This document shows, one piece after another, positions 12,436 to 41,634 of a DNA stretch of 42,141 bases; within the stretch, counting starts at the first letter, position 1, and each line of letters begins with the position of its first letter. Source of the stretch: an uncultured Bdellovibrionales bacterium (lineage in GTDB: Bacteria > Patescibacteriota > Minisyncoccia > Moranbacterales > UBA1568); assembly GCA_964550545.1 (NCBI GenBank), contig CAZJZN010000002.1, positions 1 through 42,141 of the forward strand. The letters run 5' to 3'. The notes beneath the pieces are model-generated. The model was given only the letters and a program-made list of their open reading frames with translations, ran no database searches and was not told where the DNA came from. Made by a program: the position numbers and the translations under genes.

Positions 12436-12704
12436 AGGGTGAAGTATACTGGAATTGAGCGTTTTTTGGTAGACTCTATATGATCGTCTCCGGAGAGGGC
12501 GGTTTTGGTGCGATTCCTTTATTCATACTTTTCTCTGAATAAAGGAAACGAGAATTCCCGGTTTCCGAGAAATTTTTTCGTTATGTCGAACTCTTCCTCT
12601 TCTTCCCCGACCACGCGAAGTGGATCCTGAAATTGCTGGAATATGTGAAGGGATTGGAAGGGGGGTGAAGGAAGCATATTGTTCCCATTCTTGTTTGAAA
12701 TAGT

Positions 12705-14926: not shown

Positions 14927-14929
14927 AAG

Positions 14930-16315: not shown

Positions 16316-16319
16316 CTCT

Positions 16320-17672: not shown

Positions 17673-17706
17673 AGCCATTTTTAGTCTTCGGAAGTTGATA
17701 GAATTC

Positions 17707-17734
17707 TTGCTGTTTGTGCATGGTTAACTATACT
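17707..17734 (+). promoter_or_regulatory. Candidate sigma70-type promoter (TTGCTG-16 nt-TATACT) upstream of the 17766 gene
   Basis: Hexamers read at 17707-17712 and 17729-17734 with a 16-nt spacer, in the only sizeable gap (93 nt) of the plus-strand block. This is pattern-match only. Confidence 0.2.
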
Positions 17735-17765
17735 ATGAGTTGTATCGCTTTAAGAGCAAACCGCT

Positions 17766-19431: not shown

Positions 19432-19432
19432 T

Positions 19433-20617: not shown

Positions 20618-20678
20618 TAGTGGCATCGGTGAAACTTTTTCTGCGATTTTTGCGGAAGTTCGGGATTTTTTGGATTTT

Positions 20679-21395: not shown

Positions 21396-21396
21396 A

Positions 21397-21405
21397 GGGG
21401 GGGGG
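21397..21405. repeat. G9 homopolymer immediately after the neuA stop
   Basis: Read directly: tag a ggggggggg a, at the convergence point of the plus and minus gene blocks. Confidence 0.9.
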
Positions 21406-21462
21406 AGTATTATCGTGCAAATTTTTTCGGAAGAATGCCTTGGGGGAGCACTTTGAAGCATT

Positions 21463-22569
21463 TCATTTGGACGAAGAGAAAAGTTTCTCGTATTTTATAA
21501 TACCCGTATTTTTGTCGAAATATTTCTTTGCCGTTGTGTGGGCATTTCGTGAAAGAACATGCCAATTTGTTTCATTCTGGCTTTGTAAAATTTCCGACAT
21601 ATGGGTGATGTCTTTTGCAATTGCGCCGCATTGATTTGTCTCGATGATTGCGTCGAAATTGAGAAAGGAGAGAACTGGAGTGCCATGCTTGAGAGATTCC
21701 AGAATCGTATTTGGAAATCCTTCGTTCTCTGATGTGACGATGAGAAACGATGATTGGAGATAGAGCGACTTCAAATCGTGCGCAGAGGCTCCGGGAATGA
21801 ATGTGATGTTTGATATTTTTTGCACCCTTTCTCTTGTCTTTTCAAAAATTATACTGTTTGTTTTTGGCATCACCATGGTAAAATGCCATTCCGGAAACAG
21901 GAGCGCTAGGTCGATAAGTAAGTGCGGTCGCTTGAAAGGTTCGGAACGCCCAACCCAAATGGCGTTTTTTTGGAAGTGTCTTGCTTGGCGGGGTGGAATT
22001 TCTTGAAAATTTCTGATAGTGATAACATCCCCTCGATAGTGGGGAAATGTATTGAAAAAGAGAGAGCGATCTTCTTCGTTCTGCAGGATGAATGTGTCAA
22101 TAAGGTTGATTAAGCGAAAGAAAATTTTTCCATACAGCGTTCGATTGAGCGAACCGTCAATATTCCGTATATGCGAACTTTTAACAATGATTCTTGAGCG
22201 TGTAATTTTTCCCAAAAGAAGAATCTCTACCGTTTGCCAACTGACACCTTTTGTAAATAAAACCGCAGGGGAAATGTGGAGAAGAATTGTTGCCAATCTG
22301 AAAAAGTTTTGTGCAGAGGTTATAATATTGCCACTATTTTTCTTCTGACCTCTGTGGAGAGTAATTTCGCGCACGATTTCTGTTTTTTTCTGTTGACCGA
22401 AGTCTCCCACAATAAAGTGAACGTCGAACAATTTTTTGTCTAAAGATGTTGCGATGGAGTAAGTGTCAATCTCCGCACCTCCATACGCTGGATTTTCATC
22501 GGGAAAAAACAAGGGATATGCTCCCAAAAGAATAAATGTGATGCGTTGTTTTTTTTTGGCATTATTCAT
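21463..22569 (-). CDS. Glycosyltransferase family 4-like
   Basis: C-terminal ENEGFPNTILESLKHGTPVLS (E-x7-E) and N-terminal AYGGAEIDTY are present. 368 aa. Confidence 0.8.
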   Translation of the reverse strand: MNNAKKKQRITFILLGAYPLFFPDENPAYGGAEIDTYSIATSLDKKLFDVHFIVGDFGQQKKTEIVREITLHRGQKKNSGNIITSAQNFFRLATILLHISPAVLFTKGVSWQTVEILLLGKITRSRIIVKSSHIRNIDGSLNRTLYGKIFFRLINLIDTFILQNEEDRSLFFNTFPHYRGDVITIRNFQEIPPRQARHFQKNAIWVGRSEPFKRPHLLIDLALLFPEWHFTMVMPKTNSIIFEKTRERVQKISNITFIPGASAHDLKSLYLQSSFLIVTSENEGFPNTILESLKHGTPVLSFLNFDAIIETNQCGAIAKDITHMSEILQSQNETNWHVLSRNAHTTAKKYFDKNTGIIKYEKLFSSSK

Positions 22570-23230
22570 ATTCGGCTACTGCCCAAATCTCTCCAAATTG
22601 AATGGAGTATTTTTTTATGTGTAATCCCGCAAGATCGAGTTCTTTTTTGAAGGAAGCGAATGTATATTCGGTATAGTGTGTATTATCAAGTCGCCACACT
22701 GCGCCGATACTCTCTTTGTACAGGGTAAGCCAATCCCTGTCTATCATGGGAACCCTGATGAGAAATTTTTTTGAGAGCGGTCTTATTCTGTGGAGAAATT
22801 CAACTCGGTTCTCGATATGTTCCAGAACGTTGCTCAGTATGATGGCATTAAAGGTTGTTTTAAATGTGTATTTGGTCGCATCTCCACATATGAATTGAAC
22901 ATTCTTGTGGGAACAATCTTTTCGAGCCTTCTGTATGCTTCTGTTTAATATATCGATCCCAATAATTTCTCGAGCCTTTTTTGAAAGGTCTCGGGTTACA
23001 ATTCCGTTTCCGCAACCAACATCAAGCACGGTATCATTCGCCGTTATGTTTTCCAAGAAGAAATCGTGATATTTCATGATTTCATGTTTTGGACTTATCC
23101 CATGGTTGATTCGAGTGGCAAGCTGACCGATGAGGAAATACATAAAACTGTGAATGTTGCAGAGAGTTTTAATGATGAGTTTCATCATAAGATTTGAAGA
23201 TTTTAATATATTCATCAACTGATGCATCAA
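22562..23230 (-). CDS. Class I SAM-dependent methyltransferase
   Basis: Motif I VLDVGCGNGIVTRDL, then IGIDI and FNAIILSNVLEHI. The first codon at 23230 is TTG. ATG candidates at 23227, 23188 and 23185 are equally possible, so the start is ambiguous. Confidence 0.78.
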   Translation of the reverse strand: MMHQLMNILKSSNLMMKLIIKTLCNIHSFMYFLIGQLATRINHGISPKHEIMKYHDFFLENITANDTVLDVGCGNGIVTRDLSKKAREIIGIDILNRSIQKARKDCSHKNVQFICGDATKYTFKTTFNAIILSNVLEHIENRVEFLHRIRPLSKKFLIRVPMIDRDWLTLYKESIGAVWRLDNTHYTEYTFASFKKELDLAGLHIKKYSIQFGEIWAVAEYE

Positions 23231-24188
23231 GATGGAATCTTTTTTCGGCTACAAGTCGAGAGGATTCTTTATATTGCTTCAAATTTGGGATGATATTTTC
23301 TATGGAGCGTGAAAAATCATTAAAAGATTCACTTGTAAATGGATAAGAGTCCCTAAAGGGATTATGCTGTTTTGCCTTTACGACATATCCGTTATAACCT
23401 GAAGTAATCAATTCGTTAATGCTTCCGCGTTCGAAAGCGATAACGGGAAGCCCTGCCGCCATGGCTTCGATGACACTGTTGGGACAGGCGGATTGGTCGG
23501 AGAAGAGGAAAATATCGTACTCGATGATTTTTTGGAGGAGATTCTCGTTTGAAAGTTTCCCATGGAAATGAATGTTTGGAATATTTTCAGGATTTGAGAA
23601 TATGGATTTCAGATTATTCGTATAGGTTCCGTAAATATCGAAAGAATAATCTCTTGGCTCGAGGAGCTTTACGGACTCGATAAGTGGCTTGATTTGATCT
23701 TTGCGGCGGAATTGACCAAAAGTGAGAAGTTTTATAGGAGCGCTTTCTTGTTGCCCTTTTTCGTTTGGTCTGATCTTTTCCGTATCAACGCCGTTGTAAA
23801 TGACAGTCCAGTTCTTTTTTTTCTTACGACAAATTGTTTCCCATGCTGATTTGCTGTAGTGGCTTTGATATACGACGAAATCTGCGAAATAATTGTGGAT
23901 GATTTTTATCTTGAGGTTATACAGCCAGTACAGTTTTCCAACGGAGGATGATGAAGTATAGATGCCGTCGAGGCGTTGAATGATTCTTTTTTTCAAAATC
24001 TTTGCTATGAAGAGCGATTGAAAATATTGCGAAAGTGGACAATCACCGACAATGAAAAGTATGTCAAAATCGAAGGAAAAATCCCGTGAGACGGACAATC
24101 CTTTTTTTTCAACGGCAGTGGAAAATTTTTTCACAAAAGTCGCTGTGCCGCCGATATCTTTTATTTTGAAAGGGATGAAAATTTTCAT
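23169..24188 (-). CDS. Glycosyltransferase family 4-like
   Basis: GT-B architecture with the C-terminal motif DQSACPNSVIEAMAAGLPVIAFERGS. ATGA overlap with the upstream GT2. Confidence 0.8.
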   Translation of the reverse strand: MKIFIPFKIKDIGGTATFVKKFSTAVEKKGLSVSRDFSFDFDILFIVGDCPLSQYFQSLFIAKILKKRIIQRLDGIYTSSSSVGKLYWLYNLKIKIIHNYFADFVVYQSHYSKSAWETICRKKKKNWTVIYNGVDTEKIRPNEKGQQESAPIKLLTFGQFRRKDQIKPLIESVKLLEPRDYSFDIYGTYTNNLKSIFSNPENIPNIHFHGKLSNENLLQKIIEYDIFLFSDQSACPNSVIEAMAAGLPVIAFERGSINELITSGYNGYVVKAKQHNPFRDSYPFTSESFNDFSRSIENIIPNLKQYKESSRLVAEKRFHLDASVDEYIKIFKSYDETHH

Positions 24189-24970
24189 AGAAACTTTCGT
24201 TTCAAATCTTTGATAAAACCGGGCGTGAGAATGACCGCGAGCGGTTCGAGGAGGAATCGGTATTCAAGCGGTGAACGGTGCAATTTTTTGATATAGCGAA
24301 TCTGTGTTTTTATGCACTGGTGCATTTGTTCGTTTTGGTGGTCGAACGAGAGACCGCTGTTCGCGTTTCTGTGGCACAGAAATTCTTGCAGATTATGATA
24401 GCGAGTTTTGGGTGATACGCGAAGCCAGAGTTCATAGTCTTGTCCGTAGTGCAACCGTTCATCATAATTTCCTGCATCTCGGATGAGGGGCGTCCGAAAC
24501 ATGACAGAGCTGTGCGCGAATGGATTTCTTCGTATAAGGGATCGTTTGATACTCTCATCGGACTCGGGGCATCGTACCGGATATCCGATGTCGTTTTTTT
24601 CGTTTCGATAATTACATCCCACAATGCCATGATCGGGATGTGCTTCTAAGAAGGCGATTTGCTTCTCAAGCTTTGAAGGTTCCCACCAATCATCACCGTC
24701 AATACGCGCGGTGTATGGTTCGGTAATGTTCGAGAGACCTTTGTTGAGCGATTTCGTAAGTCCGAGATTGTGCGTATTTTTTACAAGAAAAAACTTCTCT
24801 GAACCGAATGTCAATTGCCATTTCTTGAGTTTTGCAAATGTCCTGTCGGTTGAGTGATCATCAATCGCGATGATTCTGAAATCTTGAAATGTCTGCGCAA
24901 GGATACTCTCGAAGGCTTTGTCGAGGGTCGTTTCGGAATTATGGAGGGAGATGAGAATCGCGCATTTCAT
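24185..24970 (-). CDS. Glycosyltransferase family 2
   Basis: ILISLHNSETTLDKAFESILAQTFQDFRIIAIDDHSTDRT and the DxD region ARIDGDDWWEP form the canonical GT-A N-terminal domain. Confidence 0.88.
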   Translation of the reverse strand: MKCAILISLHNSETTLDKAFESILAQTFQDFRIIAIDDHSTDRTFAKLKKWQLTFGSEKFFLVKNTHNLGLTKSLNKGLSNITEPYTARIDGDDWWEPSKLEKQIAFLEAHPDHGIVGCNYRNEKNDIGYPVRCPESDESIKRSLIRRNPFAHSSVMFRTPLIRDAGNYDERLHYGQDYELWLRVSPKTRYHNLQEFLCHRNANSGLSFDHQNEQMHQCIKTQIRYIKKLHRSPLEYRFLLEPLAVILTPGFIKDLKRKFL

Positions 24971-29153: not shown

Positions 29154-30323
29154 TTATTTTTTTGAATTCTTTTTCAGTGTTTTTTCAAATACATGGAGAT
29201 ATTTTTCGGCGGAGGTGTCCCAATTGAATTTGTTTTGGATAATAAGGAGGGCATTTCTGCCGAATTGTGCGCGAATATCGGGATGCTCAATGAGAAATCC
29301 CAATTTTTCTCGAAGGACATTGATGTCTCCGGCAGGAACAAGAAAGCCATCACCATTCCCGGAAATGATTTCCGGCGTGCCGCCGACATTAGTTGCGATG
29401 ATAGCCTTTTCGCATAGCGCCGCCTCGATGATGGATGTGGGCAGTCCTTCGGTATAGCTCGGATTCACGATAATGTCGCATGCCTTCATGAGAGCGATCG
29501 CTTCCGGATGTTTCTTGTGTCCGAAAAAGAGTACCTCTTCTTCGAGGCTGTATTTTTTTGTATCTCGTTCGAGTTTTTTCCGTTCCGGACCATCTCCAAT
29601 ACAGGCAACCACGAACTTTTTTCTTGGAATGTGCGAAAGTGCGGCGAGGAGATTGGCAACACCCTTCCCATCGATGAGGCGACCGACAAATCCGATTCCG
29701 AGGCGACCGTGCTTCTTGTTGAGAAAGTCTTTGTCCGGCGCGATAGTACAAATGTCATCTCCTTCAATACCTCGGTAAATAATAGCACAATCTTTCCCGG
29801 AGAGTTTCTTTACAAATGTTGCGGATGCGGCGGAATTGGCGATGAGCGTATCCGAATATCGGAGAACGAGCCGGCCAAGGGTGTGATCGTACCACTTTCC
29901 CAAAAGAGTTTTGACAGGACTATTGAAAATCGCATAGTCGGAGCCGTGTTCTATGTGAATCAACGGGATATGCTTGATTTTTGAAAGAAGAAGCGCGAGA
30001 AGCGAAGTGCTGAAAAATCGCGTGCGGGAAATCAGAATCTCCGGCTTTGACGAGAGTGCCTCTTTGAGAAGATTCCAGAATTTTGGCATCCAGAATTTTG
30101 GCACGGGATAATTATGAATCGGCTCCCACGCGGGAAAGCGGATGATGCGGACATTTTCATGGACGATCTCTTCTTCCGGCGCGCTTGAAGGGAGTCGTGG
30201 CGTGAAAATGGAAATATTGACGCCTCGTTTTGTGAGATGCTTATTGAATTCATCCGCGTGCGACTCGAGTCCGCCGATATGGGGAGTGTAGAATGGCGAA
30301 AAGACTAAAAGCTTAAGTTTCAT
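29154..30323 (-). CDS. Glycosyltransferase family 4
   Basis: The ORF track start at 30335 is GTG. The ATG at 30323 gives MKLKLLVFSPFYTPHIGGLESH and forms an ATGA overlap with the upstream stop. The E-x7-E region is YTEGLPTSIIEAALCEKAIIATNVGG. Confidence 0.85.
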   Translation of the reverse strand: MKLKLLVFSPFYTPHIGGLESHADEFNKHLTKRGVNISIFTPRLPSSAPEEEIVHENVRIIRFPAWEPIHNYPVPKFWMPKFWNLLKEALSSKPEILISRTRFFSTSLLALLLSKIKHIPLIHIEHGSDYAIFNSPVKTLLGKWYDHTLGRLVLRYSDTLIANSAASATFVKKLSGKDCAIIYRGIEGDDICTIAPDKDFLNKKHGRLGIGFVGRLIDGKGVANLLAALSHIPRKKFVVACIGDGPERKKLERDTKKYSLEEEVLFFGHKKHPEAIALMKACDIIVNPSYTEGLPTSIIEAALCEKAIIATNVGGTPEIISGNGDGFLVPAGDINVLREKLGFLIEHPDIRAQFGRNALLIIQNKFNWDTSAEKYLHVFEKTLKKNSKK

Positions 30324-32416
30324 AATATTTTCCACAGGTAAATCTTATGTTCTTCGTCGGAATAGAGTTTCTTGAATCGAATCGGGTCTTTGTCAAAAAT
30401 GAGGTCCTTTTCTTTTCCAATGGTTTTCTTTACGTAGGGTCGGTCGAGATAGGGATTTCGAGGGTCGGGCGCGGCATAGTATACGTAGAAGTTTTTTTTC
30501 GATGAAGGAGAGTTCAGGTCATCGAGAGTGGAGCGGGATGTCGAAAGAGAGGAATCAATTTTTTTTAGGAGGAGTTTGATTTCATTTGCCTCTTGTTTGG
30601 GATTCTTCGAAAGAAATTCTTTGAGAAGTCGCTCGATATTTTCAGATTCTTTTTTGTAGGTTTCGGCGAAATACTCTTTGGAGCGAATATTTTTTTCAAG
30701 TTCTTGTTCAAAAGTGGAAGTGCTGTAATAGAAGTTTGGATTTGAGATAGAAATAATTTCTGAGCCGGAATGAAAACGAAGGAGACGTGAGTGGCCAGTT
30801 ACGAAGATGAGCCGATTTTCAGGGAGATTGGAATTGATCCACGAGGCGGATGCAAGCTGATGTTCCGTGATCATATATTTTTTGAGTGCATTAATGTAGA
30901 GGGCGGCGCCTATATTGAGTGAAATTCCAAAGAGAAGCATCCACAGAAAAAGTTTCCGGTTTCCAAGTGGCGTTTTGAGAATGATGGGGACAATTGCGGT
31001 CCCGAAAATGCCAGCGAAAACCCAGGCGCGATCCGGTAGGAGGGCAATACTGAAAAGTCTCGGAAGTATTTCGGCGAGAAGGAAAAAAATGAGAAATGAG
31101 AATGTTACCGGAAGGATATACTTTGAGAAAAAGGAGGACTTCCATGGCAGTTTTTTTCGTTCGAGAGCGATAGCGAGGAAAAGAAGGAGGAGTGCCGGTC
31201 CGATATAGAAGAGATAGTATTTTCCAACGCCAGCGAGATCTCCCCATCCCATTTCATTGCCGTCGACGTTCACATATTGTTCCGGGAAGAGGAAGTTTGT
31301 TTGAAAATGGAGAAGTGATGGAATTTGACTCTTGATTTTTGAACCGATAAATTCGGCGGGACCGAAAATATGTGGAGCCAGAATAAGGAGAATGAGCATG
31401 CTTGAGAGAATATTTTTTCGTGCAAGTACAAAAATTTCTCGGCGAAAGGCGTATCCGGTTACCAGTATCCATAATGCGAGGGGAGGTGCGAGTACTTCGT
31501 GATACCAAAACCCAAAAAAAAGGATAGCGCCACCGAGAAATGAGAAAAACATATCATTTTTCATCCATGCGTAGAGGAGAAATGAAACAAAGAAAAAGCA
31601 CGCGATACTTGCAAATGCCTGTGGGATGGGAAGAGTGAGGTAGCTAATGCCGATACCGTTTATGAATGGAAAAAGAAAAAGAATCGTCTTGTGAAGCGGA
31701 TGGGAGAAGAGAGAAGTGAGAAGCGAAATTGGGAACACGATTGCGAGAAATGAAAAGGGAAGGATGTATTTGAAGAAAGCGTAGAAGTCAATATGAGCTC
31801 CGATGGTGAAAATGTACGAGAGAGATGCAAAGAGCGGGCGATATCCGTCGAGGGGGACAATATTTCCTCCGGAAAAAAGGCGTTGAAATTCAGCATACCA
31901 GTAATAGGGATCAAGGTCAGGGAGGGGGTAAAAAGCGCTGACGATACCAAGGGCGACGAAGCTGTAGAAAAAAAACGGAAGAAGAAAATCTCGAGATGTT
32001 GCGAGCGATCGAATGTATTTGAGATGTATTGAAAAATCCGGAAAATGCTCTTTCTTGTTTTGAACAAATGAGACCCAGAAAAAAACGCCGGTAACGGCGA
32101 TAAAAATGAGGACGGCGTTTGCGAGCGGAAAAAGTGAAGAAACAGATCCGAAAAAAGTAAACTCGATCGTGAGGATGAGCGGGATGACGAAGATGGAAGC
32201 GGCGGATGAAATGGCGAGTGTTTCAATCGGAGAAAATGCTCTCTTAAAAAAATAGTGGAGGAACGCCGAGATATTCATTCCCGGAAAAATGAAGAGTGTC
32301 AGGATTTCAACAATTGAGCGAAAGACTCTTCCTAGGATACTTGTTTCAAGTGGGAGTACGCTCACAAGAATGGCCAGGAGGAAACAGAGTAGGTTCGTTC
32401 GTATGAGCCAGCGCAT
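30320..32416 (-). CDS. Large polytopic membrane protein, GT-C-like putative extracytoplasmic glycosyltransferase
   Basis: 698 aa with ~14 hydrophobic segments and a ~190-aa soluble C-terminal domain. The acidic loop motif YPLPDLDPYYWYAEF resembles the first-loop D-x-D/DPY motifs of GT-C enzymes. It sits directly downstream of a GtrB-like GT2 plus a small membrane protein. Confidence 0.6.
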   Translation of the reverse strand: MRWLIRTNLLCFLLAILVSVLPLETSILGRVFRSIVEILTLFIFPGMNISAFLHYFFKRAFSPIETLAISSAASIFVIPLILTIEFTFFGSVSSLFPLANAVLIFIAVTGVFFWVSFVQNKKEHFPDFSIHLKYIRSLATSRDFLLPFFFYSFVALGIVSAFYPLPDLDPYYWYAEFQRLFSGGNIVPLDGYRPLFASLSYIFTIGAHIDFYAFFKYILPFSFLAIVFPISLLTSLFSHPLHKTILFLFPFINGIGISYLTLPIPQAFASIACFFFVSFLLYAWMKNDMFFSFLGGAILFFGFWYHEVLAPPLALWILVTGYAFRREIFVLARKNILSSMLILLILAPHIFGPAEFIGSKIKSQIPSLLHFQTNFLFPEQYVNVDGNEMGWGDLAGVGKYYLFYIGPALLLLFLAIALERKKLPWKSSFFSKYILPVTFSFLIFFLLAEILPRLFSIALLPDRAWVFAGIFGTAIVPIILKTPLGNRKLFLWMLLFGISLNIGAALYINALKKYMITEHQLASASWINSNLPENRLIFVTGHSRLLRFHSGSEIISISNPNFYYSTSTFEQELEKNIRSKEYFAETYKKESENIERLLKEFLSKNPKQEANEIKLLLKKIDSSLSTSRSTLDDLNSPSSKKNFYVYYAAPDPRNPYLDRPYVKKTIGKEKDLIFDKDPIRFKKLYSDEEHKIYLWKIL

Positions 32417-32420
32417 AGTG

Positions 32421-32780
32421 CTATTCCTTTTTTGTTTCGATGGATGGTAGGTGCTCTAGTGTTTCCTTTCGCGTAAGCGAGGTGACCTGCGCTTCCACCC
32501 GTTCGATCGCGGAGAGAAGTTTGAAGATCATCAGGAAGACGAGAATGAAGCCGACCATAATGACAGCATTGATATTTCCTTCGATGCCGATGAGTGTGGC
32601 GAGATCATTGCTCAGTGTCGGGAAGAGGGCGATTGCCGCCATACCGCCCCAGACGATAAGTCGGATGGAAAATTTGAAAAAGGTCTGCCCGCCTTCTTGT
32701 CGGAAGTATTGCGCGCCACCCTGCCAGATCATAAATCCGGCAAGTCCCACAATGATGATTTGATAGAAATGGAGAGACAT
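32421..32780 (-). CDS. Small membrane protein, DUF2304-like
   Basis: The ATG at 32780 gives MSLHFYQIIIVGLAGFMIWQG. It has four hydrophobic segments in ~119 aa. The size and the pairing with a DPM1-like GT2 fit DUF2304. The ORF-track N-terminal extension is non-hydrophobic and is rejected. Confidence 0.65.
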   Translation of the reverse strand: MSLHFYQIIIVGLAGFMIWQGGAQYFRQEGGQTFFKFSIRLIVWGGMAAIALFPTLSNDLATLIGIEGNINAVIMVGFILVFLMIFKLLSAIERVEAQVTSLTRKETLEHLPSIETKKE

Positions 32781-32895
32781 AGGAGTGCGGTTAACAGTCA
32801 ATAGAGAATAAAAACGTTCATTGGTTGAGTAGTTGAGTTGGTTCGGTACTTTTTGAACAGTGTGAACTGAAAAGTATCGCATTCCATTCAACAGT

Positions 32896-33627
32896 CTACT
32901 TCAGCATATGAAAAATCATCCGATAGACGGTTTTTATGCCGGTTACAAGGCTTTGCTTTTGCGTCTTTCCCATCGAATAATCCGTGTAGCGGACTTCGAT
33001 GGGAACCTCGGAGTATTTGAGGCGATGTTTTTTAATTTCGCGGATGACTTCGCTGTCATATTCGTAGCGGTCAGTGGTGGTATCAATCATTTTCGCGGCG
33101 CGACATGAATAAGCGCGGAAGCCGGATTGGCTGTCGCTGACCCAGAGTCCGTAGAGGTACCAAACGATTGCATTCCCGATCATATTGTGCGCTATTTTGT
33201 ACCAAGGCATTCCCTCCGGGTTTTTGAGTCGTGTTCCGAGAACGACATCAGTTTTCTTTTGCTGGATGGGCGCGAGGAGTTTTTCGATATCCTCCGGATT
33301 ATGTTGGCCATCACCGTCCATGGTGACAATAATTTTTGCGCCGAGGAGTTTCGCGGCTTCAATTCCGGTCTTGGTGGCGGCACCCTTACCGCGATTCAAT
33401 CGGTGTCGGAGTGTCGTTGCGCCGGCGTTTTGCGATGCTTCAAATGTAGTATCTCGGCTGCCGTCATCAACAACGAGTATGTTTGAGAAGCCGGCGTTTC
33501 GGATGTCTCTGACGACGTTTCCAATGGCGGTTGCCTCATTGTAGGCGGGGATAACGATCCAGACGGAATCGTTTTGGTTGGGAGTGTGAGACGGAAGCGG
33601 CATTTTTTCGGTTTCGGTGTTTTCCAT
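32896..33627 (-). CDS. GT2 polyprenyl-phosphate sugar synthase (GtrB/DPM1/ArnC-like)
   Basis: WIVIPAYNEATAIGNVVRDI, ILVVDDGSRDTT and VTMDGDGQHNPEDI (DxD) are present. It is a compact 243-aa GT-A without TM tails. Confidence 0.85.
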   Translation of the reverse strand: MENTETEKMPLPSHTPNQNDSVWIVIPAYNEATAIGNVVRDIRNAGFSNILVVDDGSRDTTFEASQNAGATTLRHRLNRGKGAATKTGIEAAKLLGAKIIVTMDGDGQHNPEDIEKLLAPIQQKKTDVVLGTRLKNPEGMPWYKIAHNMIGNAIVWYLYGLWVSDSQSGFRAYSCRAAKMIDTTTDRYEYDSEVIREIKKHRLKYSEVPIEVRYTDYSMGKTQKQSLVTGIKTVYRMIFHMLK

Positions 33628-33652: not shown

Positions 33653-36600
33653 TCATTCAAGCGATATTTCGTATCGGTGCGACCGTTCGTCGTCAGGGAG
33701 CGGAAATGAAGAAGAGGCGACCGTGGACTCAAGAGGGACTCCGTCGAATGTGATGCTTTTTATGGCATTCGCGTGCGGGATTGTTGCGGCATGAAAGGTG
33801 AATGTGAGCGTTGCGGATTTCCAAGGAAGCGTGATCGAGCATATGCCCCATTCCGAGGGAAGAGATGGACGGAACGCGATCGAGTTATTCTCGAAACGAA
33901 CACCGAACAAGGTCTCGATGATACTTCGATACATAAGACCGGCGGAAGCAGTATACCATGTCCAGCCGCCCTTGCCGCGGTGTTCGGCGGAATAGATATC
34001 CGCCGCAACCACATAGGGTTCCACTTCATAGAGGAGTGCTTTGCGTTCGGACTCGGAACGTCGGATAGGATTTGCCGCGAGGAGAAGCTTGGAAACCATA
34101 TCGCTGCGTCCAAGCCGCGCAAATGCCTCCATCGCCCAAAAAGCGGCGTGATTGTATTGCGATCCGTTTTCGCGGATGCCGGGCGGATAATCTTTGATGT
34201 AACCCGGATTTTTCTTTCCGAGGTCGTTGAAGGGCGGATCGAGGAGTTTCAAAATGCGCATTTCGGGATCGTAGAGGAATCGCTCGAGATTTTCCATGGC
34301 TTCGCGCGCTTTTTCCGGATCTCCCGCGCGCGAAAGAACCGACCATGCTTGAGCGATAGCATCGATGCGGCACTCGTGATTCTGTTCGGATCCCAATGGC
34401 GTACCGTCGTCGTAGAAGGCGCGAAGAAACCAGTGTCCGTCCCACCCGGGGCCATTCAGGTTTTTTCGGAGTTCCTGCGCTCGTTCTCGATAGGTTTCCG
34501 AAAGCGCGGCGTCTCCTCTCTCGGAGAGAATGCCGGAAAATCGTTGTAGGAGAGAGAAAAGAAAAAATCCAAGCCAGACGCTCTCGCCTTTCTCCTCGTG
34601 ACCGATGCGATTCATACCGTCATTCCAATCCCCGTCGCGCATGAGTGGAAGCCCATGCGCGCCAAAGAGAGTTGCGTACCGAATGGCGCGAAGACAGTGC
34701 TCGAGAAGTGTCTCCGATACTCGAGACGGCGCGCTCTTCTTGACATCGAAGCGTGTCGGATCGTCAGGGAGCGGCGGAAGAAAGGGGAGGACTTCGTTAA
34801 GGATATCGTCCGAACCGGAGAGGCGGATATATTCCGATACAGCAAAGGGGAGCCAGAGCGGATGATCCGATCCTTTATTTTGGACGCCGAATTCAGAATC
34901 GGGCGACCACCACGCGCGAACATTGCCGTCTTCATACTGTTCTTGCGCCGCGGCAAGAATGTGCGTGCGAGCAATGTTTGGATCGCGGTACCAGAGCGCG
35001 ATCGCGTCCTGGAGTTGGTCGCGGAATCCGTAGGCGCCACCCGGTTGATAGAAACCGATTCGTCCCCACATTCTTGAGACGATCGTTTGGTAGGGAAGCC
35101 AGGTATTGAAAAGGATGTCGAGCGAAGTGTCGGGTGTTTGAATGACGGGGACATTCCCGGTACTCCAAAAGGCGCGAACGCTTCCCAGATGAACAGGATT
35201 GCGGTTGCGCCACGATTCACGAGCAATCGAGAAGAGATGCTGAACGTCATCCGGAGTATCTCCGGCGATGAGTGAGAAAAAAACGGTTTTTTTCTCGAAG
35301 GGAGCGAGGGAAATGTGCAAAGAGACTATTACGCAGGCATCGTGTGGCGAAGTCGGGGATGTTTCCGGTACGGTGTCTTTGAAGGAAAGGTGTCCGGAAA
35401 ATATTCCGACGGGACCGAATGCGCGGGTTTTATTGAAAGCGGTATGTGTTATCGGTTCGCTCGCAAGAATCGCTCCGTGAATCGATACGGTTTCCGGGGT
35501 TGGTGAAGGAGAAAAATACTCCGGACCGAGGAGGATGGCCTGATCCTTACCGAGTATTTCCGGAAGAGAAATGCGATGGGGAACATCAAGGTCGTGATGA
35601 TGCGGCGCGTCGACAAAGAGCGTAAGCGCGTATTGAGCGGGCTCCCCCGATGCGTTCTCGAGTTCGATGGCGGAGTGTTTTATCGGATGTTTGGGGTCGA
35701 CGGAAACCGTGAGTATGTGTCGCAGGGAGTCTCGATGTCCTTCGTACCGAGTAAAGCCTCGTCCGTGGGTGACGGAATATTCGTTTGAGGCGGGAATAGG
35801 CGCTGGCGTCGCCGACCATGTTTCGCCGGTGTCTATTTTTGTGAGAAGAATCGCTTCCGAAGGGGGATCGGTGACGGCATTATTGCTCCAGGGAGAGAGG
35901 CGACCGTGCTTACTGTTTCTGAACCACGTGGTGCCGAGCGAGTTTTCCGTGGTCATTGCGCCAAAGTTCGGATTCGCCAAAATATTCGCCCAGGGCTGGG
36001 GCGGAAGTTGATCCGGGCGAATGCGCATACGGTAATCGTGCGTTTCCGGATCGAATCCGCCAAAGCCATTCCAAAAGAGGAGTCGCTCGCTTTCAAAGAG
36101 AGGCGTTTTTGCTTCTGCCGGTTCCTCCGAATGGGAGCGGAGCGGTTCAATGTTGTTCGGGAAGAGATTCTCATTATTTTCCGTGATGCGCTTTTGGCTT
36201 GAACGGTCTTTCTCATATTCCGAAACAAAAAATTCGCGGACGGTTTCGATGGTGGGAAACCTTGCAAAGAATGTTTCCGGTTGGTGGGGGGCGAAGTGTG
36301 CCGAATTCACGAAGAAATATTCGACGCTCTCGTGTGGCGAGAGCGTTGTTCCGGCGCGGAGATTGGCGAGCGGATCGAGTATATAGCCCTCGGTATTCCG
36401 AAGCGGTTGGTGGAGAGCGATCGGTTTTCCGAACGGGCGTCCACGTCCGATGAATGCCTCGCGATCGGTTTCGAATCCCAAGAATTCCGCCGGTTTCTCG
36501 AGAAAGATTCGGTGCGAAAAAATCGGGAACCGATCGGGATCATCGAAGAATCGGCGATGATAGAGGAGGGCGCGATGCTCTTCGGAAAATTCCGCCCCGA

Positions 36601-37045
36601 TGAACATATTGCTGAAGGTCTGATGAAACGAATCGCGGAGTCGATCGAAGAGGAGGATGATGTCGAGCGAACTCGTCACTTCGATGCGTCGTGCGGAAAT
36701 ACTTTTGTTTGCGAGTGTCATCCTTCGAATTTCGAAATCGCCGGTTTCCGGGACGAGAATATCGAGTGTCGTTTCGATTGAGTGATCGACGCGAACAATG
36801 CGCGCCGTTCGCGCGCCGATGTTCATATGAAACGATTCCGGTTTCACAAAGGTTGGCGCCGGTGTTGCCGACCAGTATGCTCCGGATTCCACATCACGAA
36901 CAAAGAAAAAGATGCCATCGTCAGGGGACGGCCGGTGGCTCGTGAGGTGACACCCGCGCGCGATGAGTCTTCCGTTGCCAATCGCGTTCAGATGCGACTC
37001 GAAGCTCTTATTGCCGAGAATGTATTCATGGTGAGAGGCAAGCAT
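33653..37045 (-). CDS. GH94 glycoside phosphorylase module homologous to the C-terminal part of cyclic beta-1,2-glucan synthase (Cgs/NdvB/ChvB)
   Basis: GFYQPGGAYGFRDQLQDAIAL (catalytic-Asp region), IRENGSQYNHAAFWAMEAF and GGWTWYTASAGLMYRSIIETLFG match cellobiose/chitobiose-phosphorylase family signatures. The N-terminus EYILGNKSFESHLNAIGNG resembles the start of the GH94 region in the single-chain synthases. Confidence 0.87.
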   Translation of the reverse strand: MLASHHEYILGNKSFESHLNAIGNGRLIARGCHLTSHRPSPDDGIFFFVRDVESGAYWSATPAPTFVKPESFHMNIGARTARIVRVDHSIETTLDILVPETGDFEIRRMTLANKSISARRIEVTSSLDIILLFDRLRDSFHQTFSNMFIGAEFSEEHRALLYHRRFFDDPDRFPIFSHRIFLEKPAEFLGFETDREAFIGRGRPFGKPIALHQPLRNTEGYILDPLANLRAGTTLSPHESVEYFFVNSAHFAPHQPETFFARFPTIETVREFFVSEYEKDRSSQKRITENNENLFPNNIEPLRSHSEEPAEAKTPLFESERLLFWNGFGGFDPETHDYRMRIRPDQLPPQPWANILANPNFGAMTTENSLGTTWFRNSKHGRLSPWSNNAVTDPPSEAILLTKIDTGETWSATPAPIPASNEYSVTHGRGFTRYEGHRDSLRHILTVSVDPKHPIKHSAIELENASGEPAQYALTLFVDAPHHHDLDVPHRISLPEILGKDQAILLGPEYFSPSPTPETVSIHGAILASEPITHTAFNKTRAFGPVGIFSGHLSFKDTVPETSPTSPHDACVIVSLHISLAPFEKKTVFFSLIAGDTPDDVQHLFSIARESWRNRNPVHLGSVRAFWSTGNVPVIQTPDTSLDILFNTWLPYQTIVSRMWGRIGFYQPGGAYGFRDQLQDAIALWYRDPNIARTHILAAAQEQYEDGNVRAWWSPDSEFGVQNKGSDHPLWLPFAVSEYIRLSGSDDILNEVLPFLPPLPDDPTRFDVKKSAPSRVSETLLEHCLRAIRYATLFGAHGLPLMRDGDWNDGMNRIGHEEKGESVWLGFFLFSLLQRFSGILSERGDAALSETYRERAQELRKNLNGPGWDGHWFLRAFYDDGTPLGSEQNHECRIDAIAQAWSVLSRAGDPEKAREAMENLERFLYDPEMRILKLLDPPFNDLGKKNPGYIKDYPPGIRENGSQYNHAAFWAMEAFARLGRSDMVSKLLLAANPIRRSESERKALLYEVEPYVVAADIYSAEHRGKGGWTWYTASAGLMYRSIIETLFGVRFENNSIAFRPSLPSEWGICSITLPWKSATLTFTFHAATIPHANAIKSITFDGVPLESTVASSSFPLPDDERSHRYEISLE

Positions 37046-37125
37046 AGGCGGAGTGCGAATGAGCTGATCTTTGTTTCTATTATTATATCGTACGCCATGG
37101 ACATACCCTATGGCGATGGAGACGT

Positions 37126-40100
37126 CTACGGTGTTCTCGGGTGGATGATGCCGCTTTTGAGGAAGGTGGGAATCGGGCGAGGGAAGGGCTCTTTGTCAAT
37201 CGGGGGGACGCTTTCATCGAGAACGAAGAGTGAGTTTTGGACGAGCGGATGCGATTCGAAGAGGCGGGAGAGGAAATGATCGAAGAGGGAATTTCCGATG
37301 GCGGCGAGAATCATTCCCTGGTGATGACTCATACACATACGAACGGGCGATCCGTGACGGGATCGAAAGAAGTCGATGGATTCGATGAATCCGAATGGTG
37401 TCCGTCCGCCTCGGCGCGTGTACAGATCGAGCGCCTGAAGCGATTCTTTGGGAAAGAACGGGAGGGAGAGTGCGATCGCATATGCCGAAACAACCGGACG
37501 ATCGTCTGCGGATGGCGAGAGGGAGAGTGCGGGGAGTCCGAAGGGTTTGTAGCGATAGCTTCCGCCTCGATCGAGTTCGGCGTAACCGGATTCGGAGAGT
37601 CCCCAGATCGGAAGTCCCTGTTTTTTTGCAAAGCGGATATTCATACGGATTGCCGTTCGGATACTCCGCCCGACAAGCGAGTCCGTATGCTCTTCGAGGA
37701 AAAGGGCCGGCATCAGGTACTCAAAGAGCGTTCCCGTCCACGAGATAAGCGAAGGTCCTTTGGGGAGCGGGAGGACGGTTCGATTCAGCTTGTTCCATCC
37801 GCGAAAGGAGAGTGTTCCTTCGGCAAGTGCGAGAAAGCTCGTGATGCGCGCTTCCGAGGCAAGCGTTTGATAGAAGCGGTTTTCAATGCGTTTCGACGGG
37901 ACGTGAAAGCCGATCGAAATGAGTCCGCGCTTTCCGGATTTTAGAAAATCAAATCGCATTTCGGCAATGAGCGTATCGAGGCGTCGCGCGAGTTCGATTG
38001 AGAGGAGGGAAGAGTTTTTCGGAGCGGTCGCTTCGGAGTGGATGTCTTCGATTCGGGCGCGAACAATATCGAGAAGAATTTTTGTTTCGTCCGGAAGGGG
38101 ATGCGGAGTGGAAAATCCGGAGAGGTGTCGCCGAATGATTCCGCAGAGGTGAATGACGGATTCATAGTTTGAAGTATCCGGAATCGAGTCGACTCGCTCG
38201 AGAAGTGTTCCCCAAAAGTCCGAAAACGACTGAAAGGCGAGTGTTGCGGGAATGCGTTCCGCGATGAGGTGTACCATATCGCGAAGTCCGCGGAGCGTCT
38301 GCATTGGATCGGGAGCGCTCTCTTTTTTGAGGAGCCATTGCCGAATGGTAATGAGAGAAGCAAGAAGGTTTCCGCTGTCGACGCTCGAGATGAAGGGAGG
38401 TGGCGCGGGAAGTGCGGTCTCTACGTTGTACCAGTTGTAGAAATGTCCGCGGAATCGTTCGAGGCGTTCGAGTGTGGAAATGGTGTCATTCAATTTTTTG
38501 AGAGCGCGTTCTCGGGAGAGAAATCCGAAGCGGTGTGCCACGATGGTGGAGAGAAGTGAGAAACCGATATTGGTGATCGACGTATAGTGCGCGACGGCGG
38601 CATCGGGGGCGAATCGCACGGAATCCGGCGGAAGGAAATGGGTTTCGGGACGAATCACCGCTTCAAAAAAACTCCAGGTTTCGAGGGTGTCTCGACGAAG
38701 TCTCTCCTCGTCTTTTCGGGAGAAGACGCGATGCCGGGTATAGGGACGATTGAGGATGAAAACGATAAGGGGGAGAGCCGTCCAGAGAGCGAGGAGCACC
38801 AAGAAGAACGGGTGAACCGAGTATCCGAAATGGATACTCGCGAAAAGAATAGAAAGCGTGAGCAGTGGAAAGAGAAGGGGTGTCTTTCCCGCCGATTGTT
38901 CGGAATGAGCGGACGGAATCCATTCGAGCATGTGTTTTCCGCTCCACAGGCGACGGAAGGTCGCCGTAGCAATCGCGTGCATCGTATCGAGGGCGGAGAA
39001 GGGGAGCGTGGCGCACTCGAAGAGAGTTTGTCTGGAAAGGCGTGCTGTTCGAAGCAGTGTTTTTCGGAGCCGGTATCCCACGTGTTTCCATCGACCTGAA
39101 ATGAACTGCGCGATCCATCGCGTCCAGTCGATGATGAAATCAATGAAGAAGAGTTCCGAGAGGAACAGTCCCCAGACAAAAAGGAAGAGTGCTCCATTGT
39201 CTGTCGCCCACGAGAGAATTGTGAGGAGGAAGACGGCCGGGCGAAAGAGACTTTGGAGGAGGTTGTCGGCAATTTTGAATCGATGGATGAATTGGAGGGT
39301 GTTGGGTGTTTTTTCCCCGGATTCTTCTCGAACGCTTCGGAAGAGCCAGTCGACAATTTGCCAATCGCCCCGCGTCCATCGGTGACTTCTTGAAAGGAGC
39401 GCGCGGAGCGATTTTGGAAATTCGTCAAAGAGATCGATGTCGGCGGCGTATGCGGTTCTTCCGAACGATCCTTCGAGAAGGTCGTGGCTCAAGATTTGAT
39501 CGGGAGGAAGGGTTCCGTCGAGTGCCGCAAGAAATCCGTCGATATGAAAGGAGCCTTTTCCGGCGTAGCTTCCTTCTGAAAAGAGATCCTGATAGATTTC
39601 CGGAAAGACATTGGTGTAAGCGCTGAATCGTTTCTCATCGAAAAAAATGCGCGGGAGACGGAATCGGTGACGATTCTTGAACCACTGTTTGACATGCGGT
39701 TGGACAAAAGTGAAGCCGGAGACGAGCTGTTTCTCGCGGAGGATGGGACACTGAAGCGGATGAGCGTGAATGCCGATAATGTCTTTGATGAAATCTCTCG
39801 GGATAAAGGCGTCTTCATCGATCGTGACGACAAAGTTTGCTTCGGACGGAACGGTTCGTGAAACGATGAATGATGACGAGGTGGGACGGCCTCGAAGCAT
39901 ACGGGCGAAGTCGAGAAGTTTTCCGCGTTTCCGTTCCCATCCCATCCAGCGCTCTTGTCGCGGCGACCACACTCTTGATCGGAGTACGAACCAGAAGCGA
40001 TCGTCTGTGCCGTACCGAGTATTGAGCTCTCGAAATGCGGCGCGGGTCGCTTCGAGGAGGAGGGTGTCTCCGGGGAGGGTCTCTTCCTTGGCATCGGGAA

Positions 40101-41634
40101 AGTCAAGGAGAAGGCAGAAAGAAAGCGTGCCGGCGCGATTGCTGAGAAAAGCGGTTTCCAATTTTCCCGTGAGTGAGCGAAGGGTCTTTTCATCTTTGAG
40201 GAGCGATGGGATAACGAAGACGGTGTGTGCGGAATCGGGAATGCCGCTTCGAAAGTTGAGTCGTGGAAGGAGTGTCGGGGAAACGGCGCCGGAAAAAAAC
40301 GTGTCCGCGATGTGTTTGAATGATTTGTATAGGATGGGAATGAGAAAGAGTACGAGCCATTTGAAGTGGAGAAAGAATATCATAAACGCGATCGATGTTC
40401 CCCCCGACCCGACGCATATCGATTTGAAATAGAGGTTTTGAAGTGTTGGGAGGCGCAATCGATCGTGGTACCAGTGCCACCAAGGAAGGTGATCGTTTCC
40501 CGAGACGCTCTGTATGAGGAGGGGTAACCCATCGCCCAAGAGGAAGAATCCGATATGGTTTCGGGGAGATTCATTATTTGATTCGGCAAGCTCAAGCGCT
40601 GTCTCTAGGAGTGTTTCTTCCGGGATGCGGAGGATATGGGCGACGGCGGACGCTTTCTTTCGGTATGATTCTTGGGAAAATGACGTCATACGCGCGTAAA
40701 CGTTCGCCGGATCGCGAACGAGAAGTCGGTGCAGAGTGCTCGTTTTTTTGAGGAGCGTGTTCCACTCGAATTCTCCGAGGAGTGGGAGAGAGCGAAGGCG
40801 AATACGGACGCGAGTGGAGATATTCCGCGTGTCTTCGGAAACGGGTCGGGCGGAGACAATTCGTTCTTTTCCTTTTTCAGCGGGGCGAAACCGGGAAAGC
40901 GGGTCGAATTCTCGGGAGAGGTTTTCTTCGAGCGATTCGGCAAACGCGCGGGCGAATATGTCGCCTCGGCGGTTTCGGAGGTGTTCGCGCCGAGCATCGA
41001 GGCGAGGATGATCGGGACCGAATGTGGCGAGTGATCGTCGCGCTTCCGCTCGAGCCTCCTCCCTATCAATGAGTTCTTGGGCGGTAGCGGAAAGCTTGTC
41101 GAGCGCGAAGAGGCGGAGGAGGGGCGAGAGCATTTCGGTTTCAGCGAGTGAAAGTCGAATTCCCGTTGAGTTCTGCCAGTCGTTTATGGTACTCGCCAGA
41201 GTTTCTTCCGAAAATCGAAACGCGGTTCGCTCAACGTATGATTCAAGGAGCAATCCCGCTTCGAGGAGGTGGAGGGGAGCTACTTCATCTCGGGAGATTC
41301 GAGCAATCGAAGTTTCGAGTGATCGAAATTCCGCGGCGACGGCGGGGTGTTTTTTGAGGAGCCATCGAGTTGGAAGGAGAAGGGTTTCCGGCTCGGCGGA
41401 TCGAGCGCCGAGCGCGAGGAGCCAGGAAGGATGTCGCGCGTACGGACGGTAGAATCGTGAAAATCTCGTGTGAATTTCCCGAACTTTTCGGGAAAGTATG
41501 ACCCAAAGGAGCCGTTGTCCGCGTCGAAGTGGCAGTCCGGAAATTCTTTTCGCGGCTTCCTTGAGCCATTTTTCGGACAAGTCCGCCTGAATGTCTCTTG
41601 ATGCGAGAGAGAGGGGGAATGGGAGTCGATACAT
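37126..41634 (-). CDS. Cyclic beta-1,2-glucan synthase N-terminal part: GT84 glycosyltransferase, TM segments and a glycoamylase-like middle (cyclisation) domain
   Basis: VVTIDEDAFIP (DxD), SHDLLEGSFGRTAYAADIDLFDEFP and SRSHRWTRGDWQI are GT84 hallmarks. FRGHFYNWYNVETALPAPPPFISSVDSGNL is the conserved middle-domain motif. Multiple TM helices lie between them. Confidence 0.87.
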   Translation of the reverse strand: MYRLPFPLSLASRDIQADLSEKWLKEAAKRISGLPLRRGQRLLWVILSRKVREIHTRFSRFYRPYARHPSWLLALGARSAEPETLLLPTRWLLKKHPAVAAEFRSLETSIARISRDEVAPLHLLEAGLLLESYVERTAFRFSEETLASTINDWQNSTGIRLSLAETEMLSPLLRLFALDKLSATAQELIDREEARAEARRSLATFGPDHPRLDARREHLRNRRGDIFARAFAESLEENLSREFDPLSRFRPAEKGKERIVSARPVSEDTRNISTRVRIRLRSLPLLGEFEWNTLLKKTSTLHRLLVRDPANVYARMTSFSQESYRKKASAVAHILRIPEETLLETALELAESNNESPRNHIGFFLLGDGLPLLIQSVSGNDHLPWWHWYHDRLRLPTLQNLYFKSICVGSGGTSIAFMIFFLHFKWLVLFLIPILYKSFKHIADTFFSGAVSPTLLPRLNFRSGIPDSAHTVFVIPSLLKDEKTLRSLTGKLETAFLSNRAGTLSFCLLLDFPDAKEETLPGDTLLLEATRAAFRELNTRYGTDDRFWFVLRSRVWSPRQERWMGWERKRGKLLDFARMLRGRPTSSSFIVSRTVPSEANFVVTIDEDAFIPRDFIKDIIGIHAHPLQCPILREKQLVSGFTFVQPHVKQWFKNRHRFRLPRIFFDEKRFSAYTNVFPEIYQDLFSEGSYAGKGSFHIDGFLAALDGTLPPDQILSHDLLEGSFGRTAYAADIDLFDEFPKSLRALLSRSHRWTRGDWQIVDWLFRSVREESGEKTPNTLQFIHRFKIADNLLQSLFRPAVFLLTILSWATDNGALFLFVWGLFLSELFFIDFIIDWTRWIAQFISGRWKHVGYRLRKTLLRTARLSRQTLFECATLPFSALDTMHAIATATFRRLWSGKHMLEWIPSAHSEQSAGKTPLLFPLLTLSILFASIHFGYSVHPFFLVLLALWTALPLIVFILNRPYTRHRVFSRKDEERLRRDTLETWSFFEAVIRPETHFLPPDSVRFAPDAAVAHYTSITNIGFSLLSTIVAHRFGFLSRERALKKLNDTISTLERLERFRGHFYNWYNVETALPAPPPFISSVDSGNLLASLITIRQWLLKKESAPDPMQTLRGLRDMVHLIAERIPATLAFQSFSDFWGTLLERVDSIPDTSNYESVIHLCGIIRRHLSGFSTPHPLPDETKILLDIVRARIEDIHSEATAPKNSSLLSIELARRLDTLIAEMRFDFLKSGKRGLISIGFHVPSKRIENRFYQTLASEARITSFLALAEGTLSFRGWNKLNRTVLPLPKGPSLISWTGTLFEYLMPALFLEEHTDSLVGRSIRTAIRMNIRFAKKQGLPIWGLSESGYAELDRGGSYRYKPFGLPALSLSPSADDRPVVSAYAIALSLPFFPKESLQALDLYTRRGGRTPFGFIESIDFFRSRHGSPVRMCMSHHQGMILAAIGNSLFDHFLSRLFESHPLVQNSLFVLDESVPPIDKEPFPRPIPTFLKSGIIHPRTP

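Follow-up and report, generated by a model that had tools for sequence, protein, structure and literature searches.

Cyclic beta-1,2-glucans are host-interaction factors in Brucella, Agrobacterium, and rhizobia, and their synthase, Cgs, is the textbook case of a single polypeptide that starts the chain, extends it, controls its length, and closes it into a ring. How should we read a locus at which the homolog of this enzyme is written as two consecutive genes, and what could its two halves do? Such a locus lies in a 42-kb stretch of DNA (contig CAZJZN010000002.1, 42,141 nucleotides, hereafter the window, whose numbering is used for all positions) from an uncultured bacterium whose closest named genomes belong to Candidatus Moraniibacteriota, a lineage of the Candidate Phyla Radiation (CPR). 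Two open reading frames (ORFs) follow each other on its minus strand: ORF-A (37126..41634; 1502 aa, ATG start, stop TAG at 37126-37128) and ORF-B (33653..37045; 1130 aa, ATG start), with an intergenic spacer of 80 nt between them (37046-37125). A preliminary description, made from the sequence alone, had read the pair as a Cgs homolog split before its GH94 phosphorylase module. Its coordinates for the two ORFs agree exactly with ours, and all the motifs that it quoted were located in the two translations.

The Cgs homolog of this genome is encoded as two intact genes, cut between the cyclase and GH94. As to the way in which the halves work, we lean, with slightly better than even confidence, towards a membrane synthase core (ORF-A) and a detached soluble GH94 enzyme (ORF-B) that would trim the product in trans, both derived by fission of a single-chain Cgs. 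In the literature searched, which was a limited collection, neither a naturally split Cgs nor a Cgs from CPR bacteria was found to be described.

Two genes in place of one polypeptide

ORF-A and ORF-B stand in different frames (80 mod 3 = 2). The earlier argument that stop codons in the spacer make a single frameshift unlikely proved to be flawed. The ORF-A frame does hold one more TAG within the spacer, and the third frame holds TAA, TAA, and TAG, but the ORF-B frame is open over the entire spacer and for 70 nt into ORF-A, so that, on paper, the gain or loss of one nucleotide close to the ORF-A end could suffice to fuse the two genes. It is by comparative data, and not from the window sequence alone, that an error can be excluded. 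The spacer had also been called AT-rich. This is true of a 24-nt core, while the spacer as a whole is only modestly so, with 46% GC against ~53-55% in the flanking genes.

By exact look-up, ORF-A falls in a 90% cluster of 21 sequences with NCBI, Logan, or ENA source labels. The cluster contains at least 13 distinct full-length variants, each on a contig of its own and all of 1502 aa; the variants of ORF-B have 1129, 1130, or 1143 aa. One separate metagenome contig, L088, has a junction identical to that of the window. The homolog search gave 18 ORF-A orthologs with 54-97% identity, mostly of 1494-1560 aa (the exceptions are P0012 with 1713 aa, and P0017 with 1424 aa at 73% query coverage), and 17 ORF-B orthologs with 43-95% identity, all of 1123-1151 aa. 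A survey of homologs for the same split had been proposed in the preliminary description, and its outcome is that two genes are kept in orthologs down to 43-54% identity.

The interval between the two genes varies among these orthologs. ORF-B follows ORF-A after 98 nt in L001 (relative frame 2), 28 nt in L085 (relative frame 1), 135 nt in L168 (relative frame 0), and 70 nt in the contig of P0041 (relative frame 1), and the ortholog spacers contain 0-2 further in-frame stops. In L167 the spacer reaches 1119 nt (relative frame 0) and includes a gene of 323 aa, and in L002/L086 a region of ~1 kb with a reverse-strand ORF separates ORF-A from ORF-B.

Could the split still be explained by an assembly or sequencing error, by a decaying gene, or by recoding that yields one chain? 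The open frame of ORF-B speaks for it, as one -1 shift would join the genes, but we regard this as scarcely credible. The ORF lengths are equal in the at least 13 variants from separate contigs, and the ortholog spacers of 28-135 nt occur in all three relative frames. Whole genes stand between the halves in two lineages (L002/L086 and L167), and there is no slippery heptamer before the ORF-A stop. The catalytic residues are invariant, and the divergence of the two genes is matched over 43-97% identity. Assembly error and pseudogene formation are therefore ruled out by the variants, the identical junction of L088, the two-gene orthologs, and the conserved catalytic residues, and programmed -1 frameshifting or readthrough by the missing slippery site, the varied spacer lengths and frames, and the inserted genes. 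To this the congruent trees of the two genes may be added, and the preliminary description was right in taking the split for a real one.

In other phyla, for which 80 species genomes were inspected, most of the loci long enough to judge (57/80) have one ORF of ~2800-3100 codons. The contig L088, which is 97% identical to the window, carries a frameshift inside ORF-B (tblastn frame switch at ~nt 1251-1275, with query residues 344-351 overlapping). It is probably an assembly error or a strain chimera in a low-coverage contig.

Modules and catalytic residues of the two genes

The modules follow the order of characterised single-chain Cgs, that is, N-terminal domain (NTD), GT84, a transmembrane (TM) region (six helices in Cgs, and here hydrophobic blocks that would fit about six), GH189, and GH94, with ~30-40% identity over both halves and with the priming Tyr, the glycosyltransferase motifs, both cyclase glutamates, and the phosphorylase Asp conserved. 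The earlier placement of GT84, the TM segments, and the cyclisation module in ORF-A, and of GH94 in ORF-B, agrees with the alignments to Agrobacterium Cgs, with Pfam, and with hydropathy. At the level of sequence, the catalytic residues of ORF-A and ORF-B that can be mapped are intact.

Residues 280-1477 of ORF-A align to 289-1520 of Agrobacterium tumefaciens Cgs (8rf0/8rf9; phmmer, E=4e-150). The chain numbering of 8rf0 is that of the cryo-EM paper, as checked on Y694 and D2528 (PMC10901819). Pfam gave a single match for ORF-A, PF10091 (glycoamylase-like) at residues 1254-1463, and no NCBIfam model matched ORF-A or ORF-B. For GT84 no Pfam or NCBIfam model fired on ORF-A, and the glycosyltransferase region (~residues 450-790; 39265..40287, minus strand) was placed by alignment to 8rf0. 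The GT84 motifs of ORF-A are DxD as IDEDA at 605 (D606/D608), HDLLEG at 717, and HRWTRGDWQ at 751, and its Y673 aligns with Y694, the priming tyrosine of the Agrobacterium enzyme. D606, D608, Y673, H717-G722, and R752-Q759 are invariant across the 18 ORF-A sequences of the clade.

A Kyte-Doolittle scan with a 19-residue window located the hydrophobic segments of ORF-A within 38743..40437 (minus strand). They form three blocks, at ~400-435, ~795-835, and 920-964, each of which fits two helices, and are compatible with the 2+2+2 TM arrangement of Cgs. The GH189 cyclase (transglycosylase) domain was delimited by PF10091 and alignments at ~residues 975-1477 (37204..38712, minus strand), and its comparison with the cyclase domain of TiCGS (8wy1) gave an E-value of about 1e-44. 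By alignment and residue counting, E1261 corresponds to E1300 of the A. tumefaciens enzyme and E1356 of TiCGS, and E1348 corresponds to E1386 and E1442, respectively. YNWY stands at 1066, SSVDSGN at 1083, and SHHQG at 1436-1440. The doubt raised earlier, whether the product is cyclic at all, finds no backing in the sequence, as both glutamates and the supporting histidine motif SHHQG are invariant in the 18 sequences. In the JGI automatic annotation one ORF-A ortholog is named 'cyclic beta-1,2-glucan synthetase'.

ORF-B matches PF06165 twice (E=1e-82) and PF17167, GH94 (E=2e-93). It consists of two supersandwich domains and an (alpha/alpha)6 catalytic domain, and the Kyte-Doolittle scan revealed no TM-like hydrophobic segment in it. 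Its alignment to Agrobacterium Cgs (E=6e-168) has two parts, 9-246 to 1562-1804 and 314-1083 to 2036-2804. GFRDQLQD lies at 673 and ENGSQYNH at 959. The catalytic acid is D809 (codon 34619..34621, minus strand), which is the second D of GDWNDG and equals D2528 of Agrobacterium Cgs. D806-G810 do not vary among 23 sequences, some of them orthologs without an adjacent ORF-A.

ORF-B cannot be taken as the plain C-terminal half of Cgs, as the preliminary description had it. It has 67 residues between the first and the second supersandwich against 231 in Agrobacterium Cgs. This short linker (residues 247-313; 36107..36307, minus strand) replaces the stretch with the Rossmann-fold-like (RFL) subdomain (1847-2012), which is missing from ORF-B. 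In the AlphaFold2 model of ORF-B (pLDDT 75.9, pTM 0.74) the linker appears only as two or three helices and a disordered stretch, with low pLDDT at 296-313. A fold search with this model gave Cgs (8rfe) as the best match, TMq 0.78, and a full-length match to the phosphorylase LpSOGP (5h3z), TMq 0.67; the folds of cellobiose and chitobiose phosphorylases were matched as well. In the single-chain Agrobacterium enzyme the RFL subdomain contacts the NTD (PMC10901819). The split Moranbacteria Cgs departs from the characterised family in two architectural features: it is made of two genes instead of a single polypeptide of ~2800 aa, and it has no Rossmann-like subdomain.

The distribution of this insert of ~150 aa was followed in 126 homologous GH94 regions. 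All 115 fused or ~1300-aa stand-alone forms have it, and it is missing only from the Moranbacteria clade and from two Gemmatimonadota genes. The latter (L169 1482-13733, L170 1-9565) are insert-less free GH94 enzymes, 34-35% identical to full-length ORF-B, in loci apparently devoted to beta-1,2-glucan utilisation, with a TonB-dependent receptor, a GH144-like glucanase, an ABC sugar importer, and GH1. The stand-alone forms of ~1300 aa constitute a distinct Cgs-GP-type GH94 clade, found in ~30 of the soil metagenome loci L092-L163 (e.g. L092-L128, with L097 5887-9819 among them), and represented also by a 'cellobiose phosphorylase' of Ensifer adhaerens (P0108). They are 36-39% identical to ORF-B and belong, like it, to the Cgs-GP subfamily, but the Rossmann-like insert is kept in them, and no synthase core lies upstream.

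A probable fission scar and the start of ORF-B

Where was the chain cut? To answer this question we compared the junctions of 6 loci of the clade and 9 fused loci. In the fused enzymes of several phyla the motif Y-x3-P-x4-PRT-[QH]-[IL]LSNG-x-Y leads into the first GH94 strand. ORF-A ends in a C-terminal tail, PPIDKEPFPRPIPTFLKSGIIHPRTP (residues 1478-1502; 37129..37203, minus strand), a relic of the linker between the cyclase (CY) and GP domains. The pattern of this tail in the clade is ...KEPFPRP..YL.....HPRTP-stop, with P1483-P1487 and H1498-P1502 invariant. Its last 12 residues (Y-x7-PRT-P) align in register with the 12 residues before '[IL]LSNG' in single-chain Cgs, and the ORF-B orthologs begin with M-x(2-8)-EY-ILxNG. 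The tail of ORF-A and the head of ORF-B are halves of one motif, and therefore of one formerly contiguous sequence with a common origin. On these alignments we take the breakpoint for a fission scar. The core-only enzymes L082, L049, and L036 of other phyla end straight after the cyclase, without a Y-x7-PRT-P tail. According to the preliminary description ORF-B begins right at the expected start of GH94. The module is indeed a separate ORF, but the cut does not coincide with the start of the GP region as bounded in the cryo-EM paper (residue 1536); it lies ~25 residues further in.

That the very C-terminus of ORF-A has stayed invariant hints at a function still in place; the tail may be a docking peptide for ORF-B. 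Within the clade the neighbour-joining (NJ) trees of ORF-A and ORF-B agree in topology, and the two genes have matched distances from the window (ORF-A/ORF-B: 0.41/0.37, 0.44/0.50, 0.62/0.64, 0.64/0.64, and 0.80/0.94). In all the loci with ORF-A, ORF-B lies downstream of it (8/8). Such a congruence in topology and rates, the constant pairing, and a tail homologous to the stretch before GP1 would all fit an obligate non-covalent two-subunit holoenzyme, in which ORF-B would be permanently docked on the ORF-A tail and would rebuild the single-chain architecture together with its scaffolding. It would also agree with the Agrobacterium enzyme, whose C-terminal domain is a required scaffold even with its catalytic Asp mutated (PMC10901819). 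Nevertheless we consider such a holoenzyme rather unlikely. ORF-B has kept all its catalytic residues in five loci that have no adjacent ORF-A, genes have been inserted between the two in two lineages, and ORF-B has a promoter-like element of its own. Moreover, the RFL subdomain, the source of the contact between GP and NTD in the single-chain enzyme, is absent, and the Cgs of B. abortus is active without its phosphorylase domain (PMC11071196).

The promoter-like element is an extended -10 sequence, TACGATATAAT (37082..37092, minus strand), inside the spacer and 33 nt upstream of the ORF-B ATG; the 42-kb window contains one exact copy of it. Its consensus TACGNTATAMT, -10-like with a fixed TACG upstream, was detected 6-55 nt before the ORF-B start in 8/13 loci (the window, L002/L086, L166, L087, L171, L172, and L173; at ~13430 in L002 and ~8945 in L166), and it is kept with or without ORF-A. 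A two-hexamer consensus scan revealed no full sigma-70 promoter in the spacer, and a consensus scan for terminator-like hairpins revealed none between ORF-A and ORF-B. The ATG of ORF-B has the context 'CCT ATG', as have other genes of this genome. As predicted from the sequence, ORF-B is an independently initiated gene, and it is probably independently transcribed.

Among the start codons checked (minus-strand genes, e.g. 41634, 37045, 29111, and 27187), 5/10 are directly preceded by 'CCT' and 0/10 have a Shine-Dalgarno sequence.

In the five loci without adjacent ORF-A (L087, L166, L171, L172, and L173) neither ORF-A nor a remnant of it is present in the 1-9 kb available upstream, and ORF-B is the first gene of its operon. 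One of them, L166, is the closed 1.11-Mb Moranbacteria genome CP064974.1. Two protein searches found no ORF-A in it, a negative that is unreliable because the profile search also failed to recover ORF-A from L085 and L167, both of which were part of the query alignment. The term "two-subunit version" used in the preliminary description presumes a complex, whereas the own promoter-like element of ORF-B, the genes inserted in two lineages, and the 5/13 loci without adjacent ORF-A point the other way. Because of this element, these loci, and the lost insert, ORF-B is probably a free-standing phosphorylase and not an obligate subunit.

Directly after ORF-B, and on the same minus strand, there is a gene for a PpgS-like polyprenyl-phosphate sugar GT2 (32896-33627), followed by genes for a DUF2304 protein (32421-32891) and a 698-aa membrane protein with no Pfam match (30320-32416). 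A GT2 gene (PpgS-like in the window) stands after ORF-B in 12/12 loci with gene calls, including those without ORF-A, and DUF2304 in 10/12 (it is missing in L167, and L172 ends first). In the window, genes for GT4, AsnB-like, and methyltransferase proteins come after the membrane protein, and these, together with a membrane protein of ~700 aa, recur further downstream in many of the loci. The genomic context of ORF-B is biosynthetic in 13/13 loci. The downstream genes resemble the mycobacterial PpgS/Rv3632 polyprenyl-P-sugar module with a possible GT-C transferase.

In every locus ORF-B heads the same operon of GT2, DUF2304, membrane protein, and GT4, with or without ORF-A. Is it functionally unrelated to ORF-A? 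It would be in this case a free phosphorylase, SOGP-like or with an altered substrate, which would serve an envelope glycan operon or the scavenging of external glucan. Its architecture agrees with this proposal. SOGP enzymes (L. phytofermentans 5H3Z, Listeria innocua Lin1839; GH94) are free soluble proteins of ~1100 aa with an insert-less GP1-GP2-GP3 order, and the three-subdomain insert-less architecture of ORF-B is that of LpSOGP (PMC10901819). The same architecture is found in the Gemmatimonadota homologs of catabolic loci, and the NJ tree joins ORF-B beside them. However, by sequence ORF-B is far nearer to the GP region of Cgs (E=6e-168) than to LpSOGP, to which its similarity is weak (E=2e-11, ~14% identity in structural alignment). 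SOGP genes lie in catabolic operons with transporters and glucosidases, while ORF-B lies after a synthase core and before glycosyltransferases, and no importer, endo-glucanase, or beta-glucosidase is situated near ORF-B in any Moranbacteria locus. The contiguous motif shared by the ORF-A tail and the ORF-B head, and the constant position of ORF-B downstream of ORF-A wherever the latter occurs, also speak against it, and we hold a functional independence of this kind to be improbable. ORF-B has the SOGP architecture, but Cgs-GP sequence affinity and a biosynthetic context; with regard to membership in SOGP (EC 2.4.1.333), it fits the architecture and not the context of a beta-1,2-glucan utilisation operon.

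How the two halves may act, and related architectures

In the reading that we favour, a synthase core with a detached phosphorylase, ORF-A would, by homology, prime itself on Tyr673. Its GT84 domain would extend a beta-1,2-glucan using UDP-glucose, and its GH189 domain would free the product via transglycosylation (cyclisation). ORF-B would be a separate, soluble product with a start codon and probably a promoter of its own. As such it would phosphorolyse beta-1,2-glucan from the non-reducing end to glucose-1-phosphate, and in this manner set or trim the chain length in trans. ORF-B may also dock, perhaps transiently, on the Y-x7-PRT-P tail that ORF-A has kept from the old linker. Since it is found without a neighbouring ORF-A, it most likely also acts alone, and its substrates would then be linear beta-1,2-glucans, because cyclic glucans offer an exo-phosphorylase no free end.

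A self-sufficient ORF-A core has a precedent in the Cgs of B. abortus, which, when truncated in the phosphorylase domain, produces cyclic glucans of a higher degree of polymerisation in E. coli (PMC11071196). The truncations of Agrobacterium Cgs, in contrast, are inactive (PMC10901819). The C-terminal half appears to be an essential scaffold in Agrobacterium, yet in Brucella it is dispensable except for the control of size.

Several points weigh against a trimming phosphorylase born by fission. Agrobacterium Cgs is non-functional once its C-terminal domain is removed, and the RFL subdomain has been proposed to orient the chain for cyclisation (PMC10901819). This dependence and the missing RFL subdomain imply that the product may differ here, in the form of linear chains, other ring sizes, or another cyclisation efficiency. 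ORF-B occurs without adjacent ORF-A in 5/13 loci, and its tightest conserved neighbours are the PpgS-like GT2 and DUF2304 rather than ORF-A, so that its main role may lie elsewhere. No Cgt/NdvA-type ABC exporter was found in the window. Fission is preferred to an ancestral unfused state because of the tail relic and on grounds of parsimony, and the NJ trees, which have long branches and short internal nodes, place ORF-A by GP-less cores and ORF-B by free catabolic phosphorylases.

A wider proposition can be put forward as a tentative one, and we rather doubt it as a whole: CPR (Moranbacteria) episymbionts might make cyclic beta-1,2-glucans by a two-component synthase, whose ORF-B would dock on the tail, set the ring size, and moonlight for the envelope operon in relatives with no adjacent core. 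The hosts of characterised single-chain Cgs differ from the organism studied here, a monoderm-type CPR bacterium that has no periplasm and no adjacent Cgt-like exporter. The locus extends cyclic-glucan synthase genes to ultra-small CPR bacteria and raises the question of the role of the glucan there. The split lineage offers ready-made separate components, with both genes kept under selection and the Rossmann-like insert removed. Length control in trans, the linker tail as a docking element, and the purpose of the insert can all be approached with such genes.

It is useful to set this locus beside the other natural forms of the family. From the literature one would not expect Cgs architecture to be nearly as plastic as it is: there are core-only, GP1-only, and free-GP forms besides the split one. 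The B. abortus truncation, the core-only enzymes (L082, L049, L036), and the GP1-only enzymes (L013, L026) are similar to ORF-A in having a core without a covalently attached catalytic GH94. Unlike ORF-A, these shortened forms have no partner GH94 gene adjacent, and the natural ones have no Y-x7-PRT-P tail. The GP1-only enzymes of Chitinophaga eiseniae (L013 7170-13163) and Pedobacter sp. (L026 7857-13733) are Cgs homologs of ~1960-2000 aa whose sequence stops after GP1, the first GH94 supersandwich. They lack a catalytic GH94 domain, and the 6-7 kb downstream contain no GH94 gene. The core-only enzymes have ~1490-1560 aa (L082 8001-12536; L049 7560-12038; L036 184-4869, from Candidatus Saccharibacteria), and L082 adjoins a GH3 beta-glucosidase, an ABC exporter, and a LacI regulator. 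The Moranbacteria ORF-A clade has these GP-less cores as its neighbours in the NJ tree. In L084 (8001-17064) an ORF of 1481 aa (GT/TM, no Pfam match) overlaps by 50 nt with an ORF of 1555 aa (cyclase and GH94). This is possibly a second kind of split, before the cyclase, or a long-read frameshift.

Two features of the window outside the Cgs genes may be recorded. The GC skew is positive across the entire window, irrespective of gene strand. A block at ~12700-24200 has a lower GC content (0.37-0.42 vs ~0.50) and contains genes of the nonulosonic-acid pathway (NeuB, UDP-GlcNAc 2-epimerase, and a cytidylyltransferase), two TagB/F-like glycerophosphotransferases, a Wzx-like flippase, and methyltransferases. 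This block is probably a horizontally acquired surface-glycan island.

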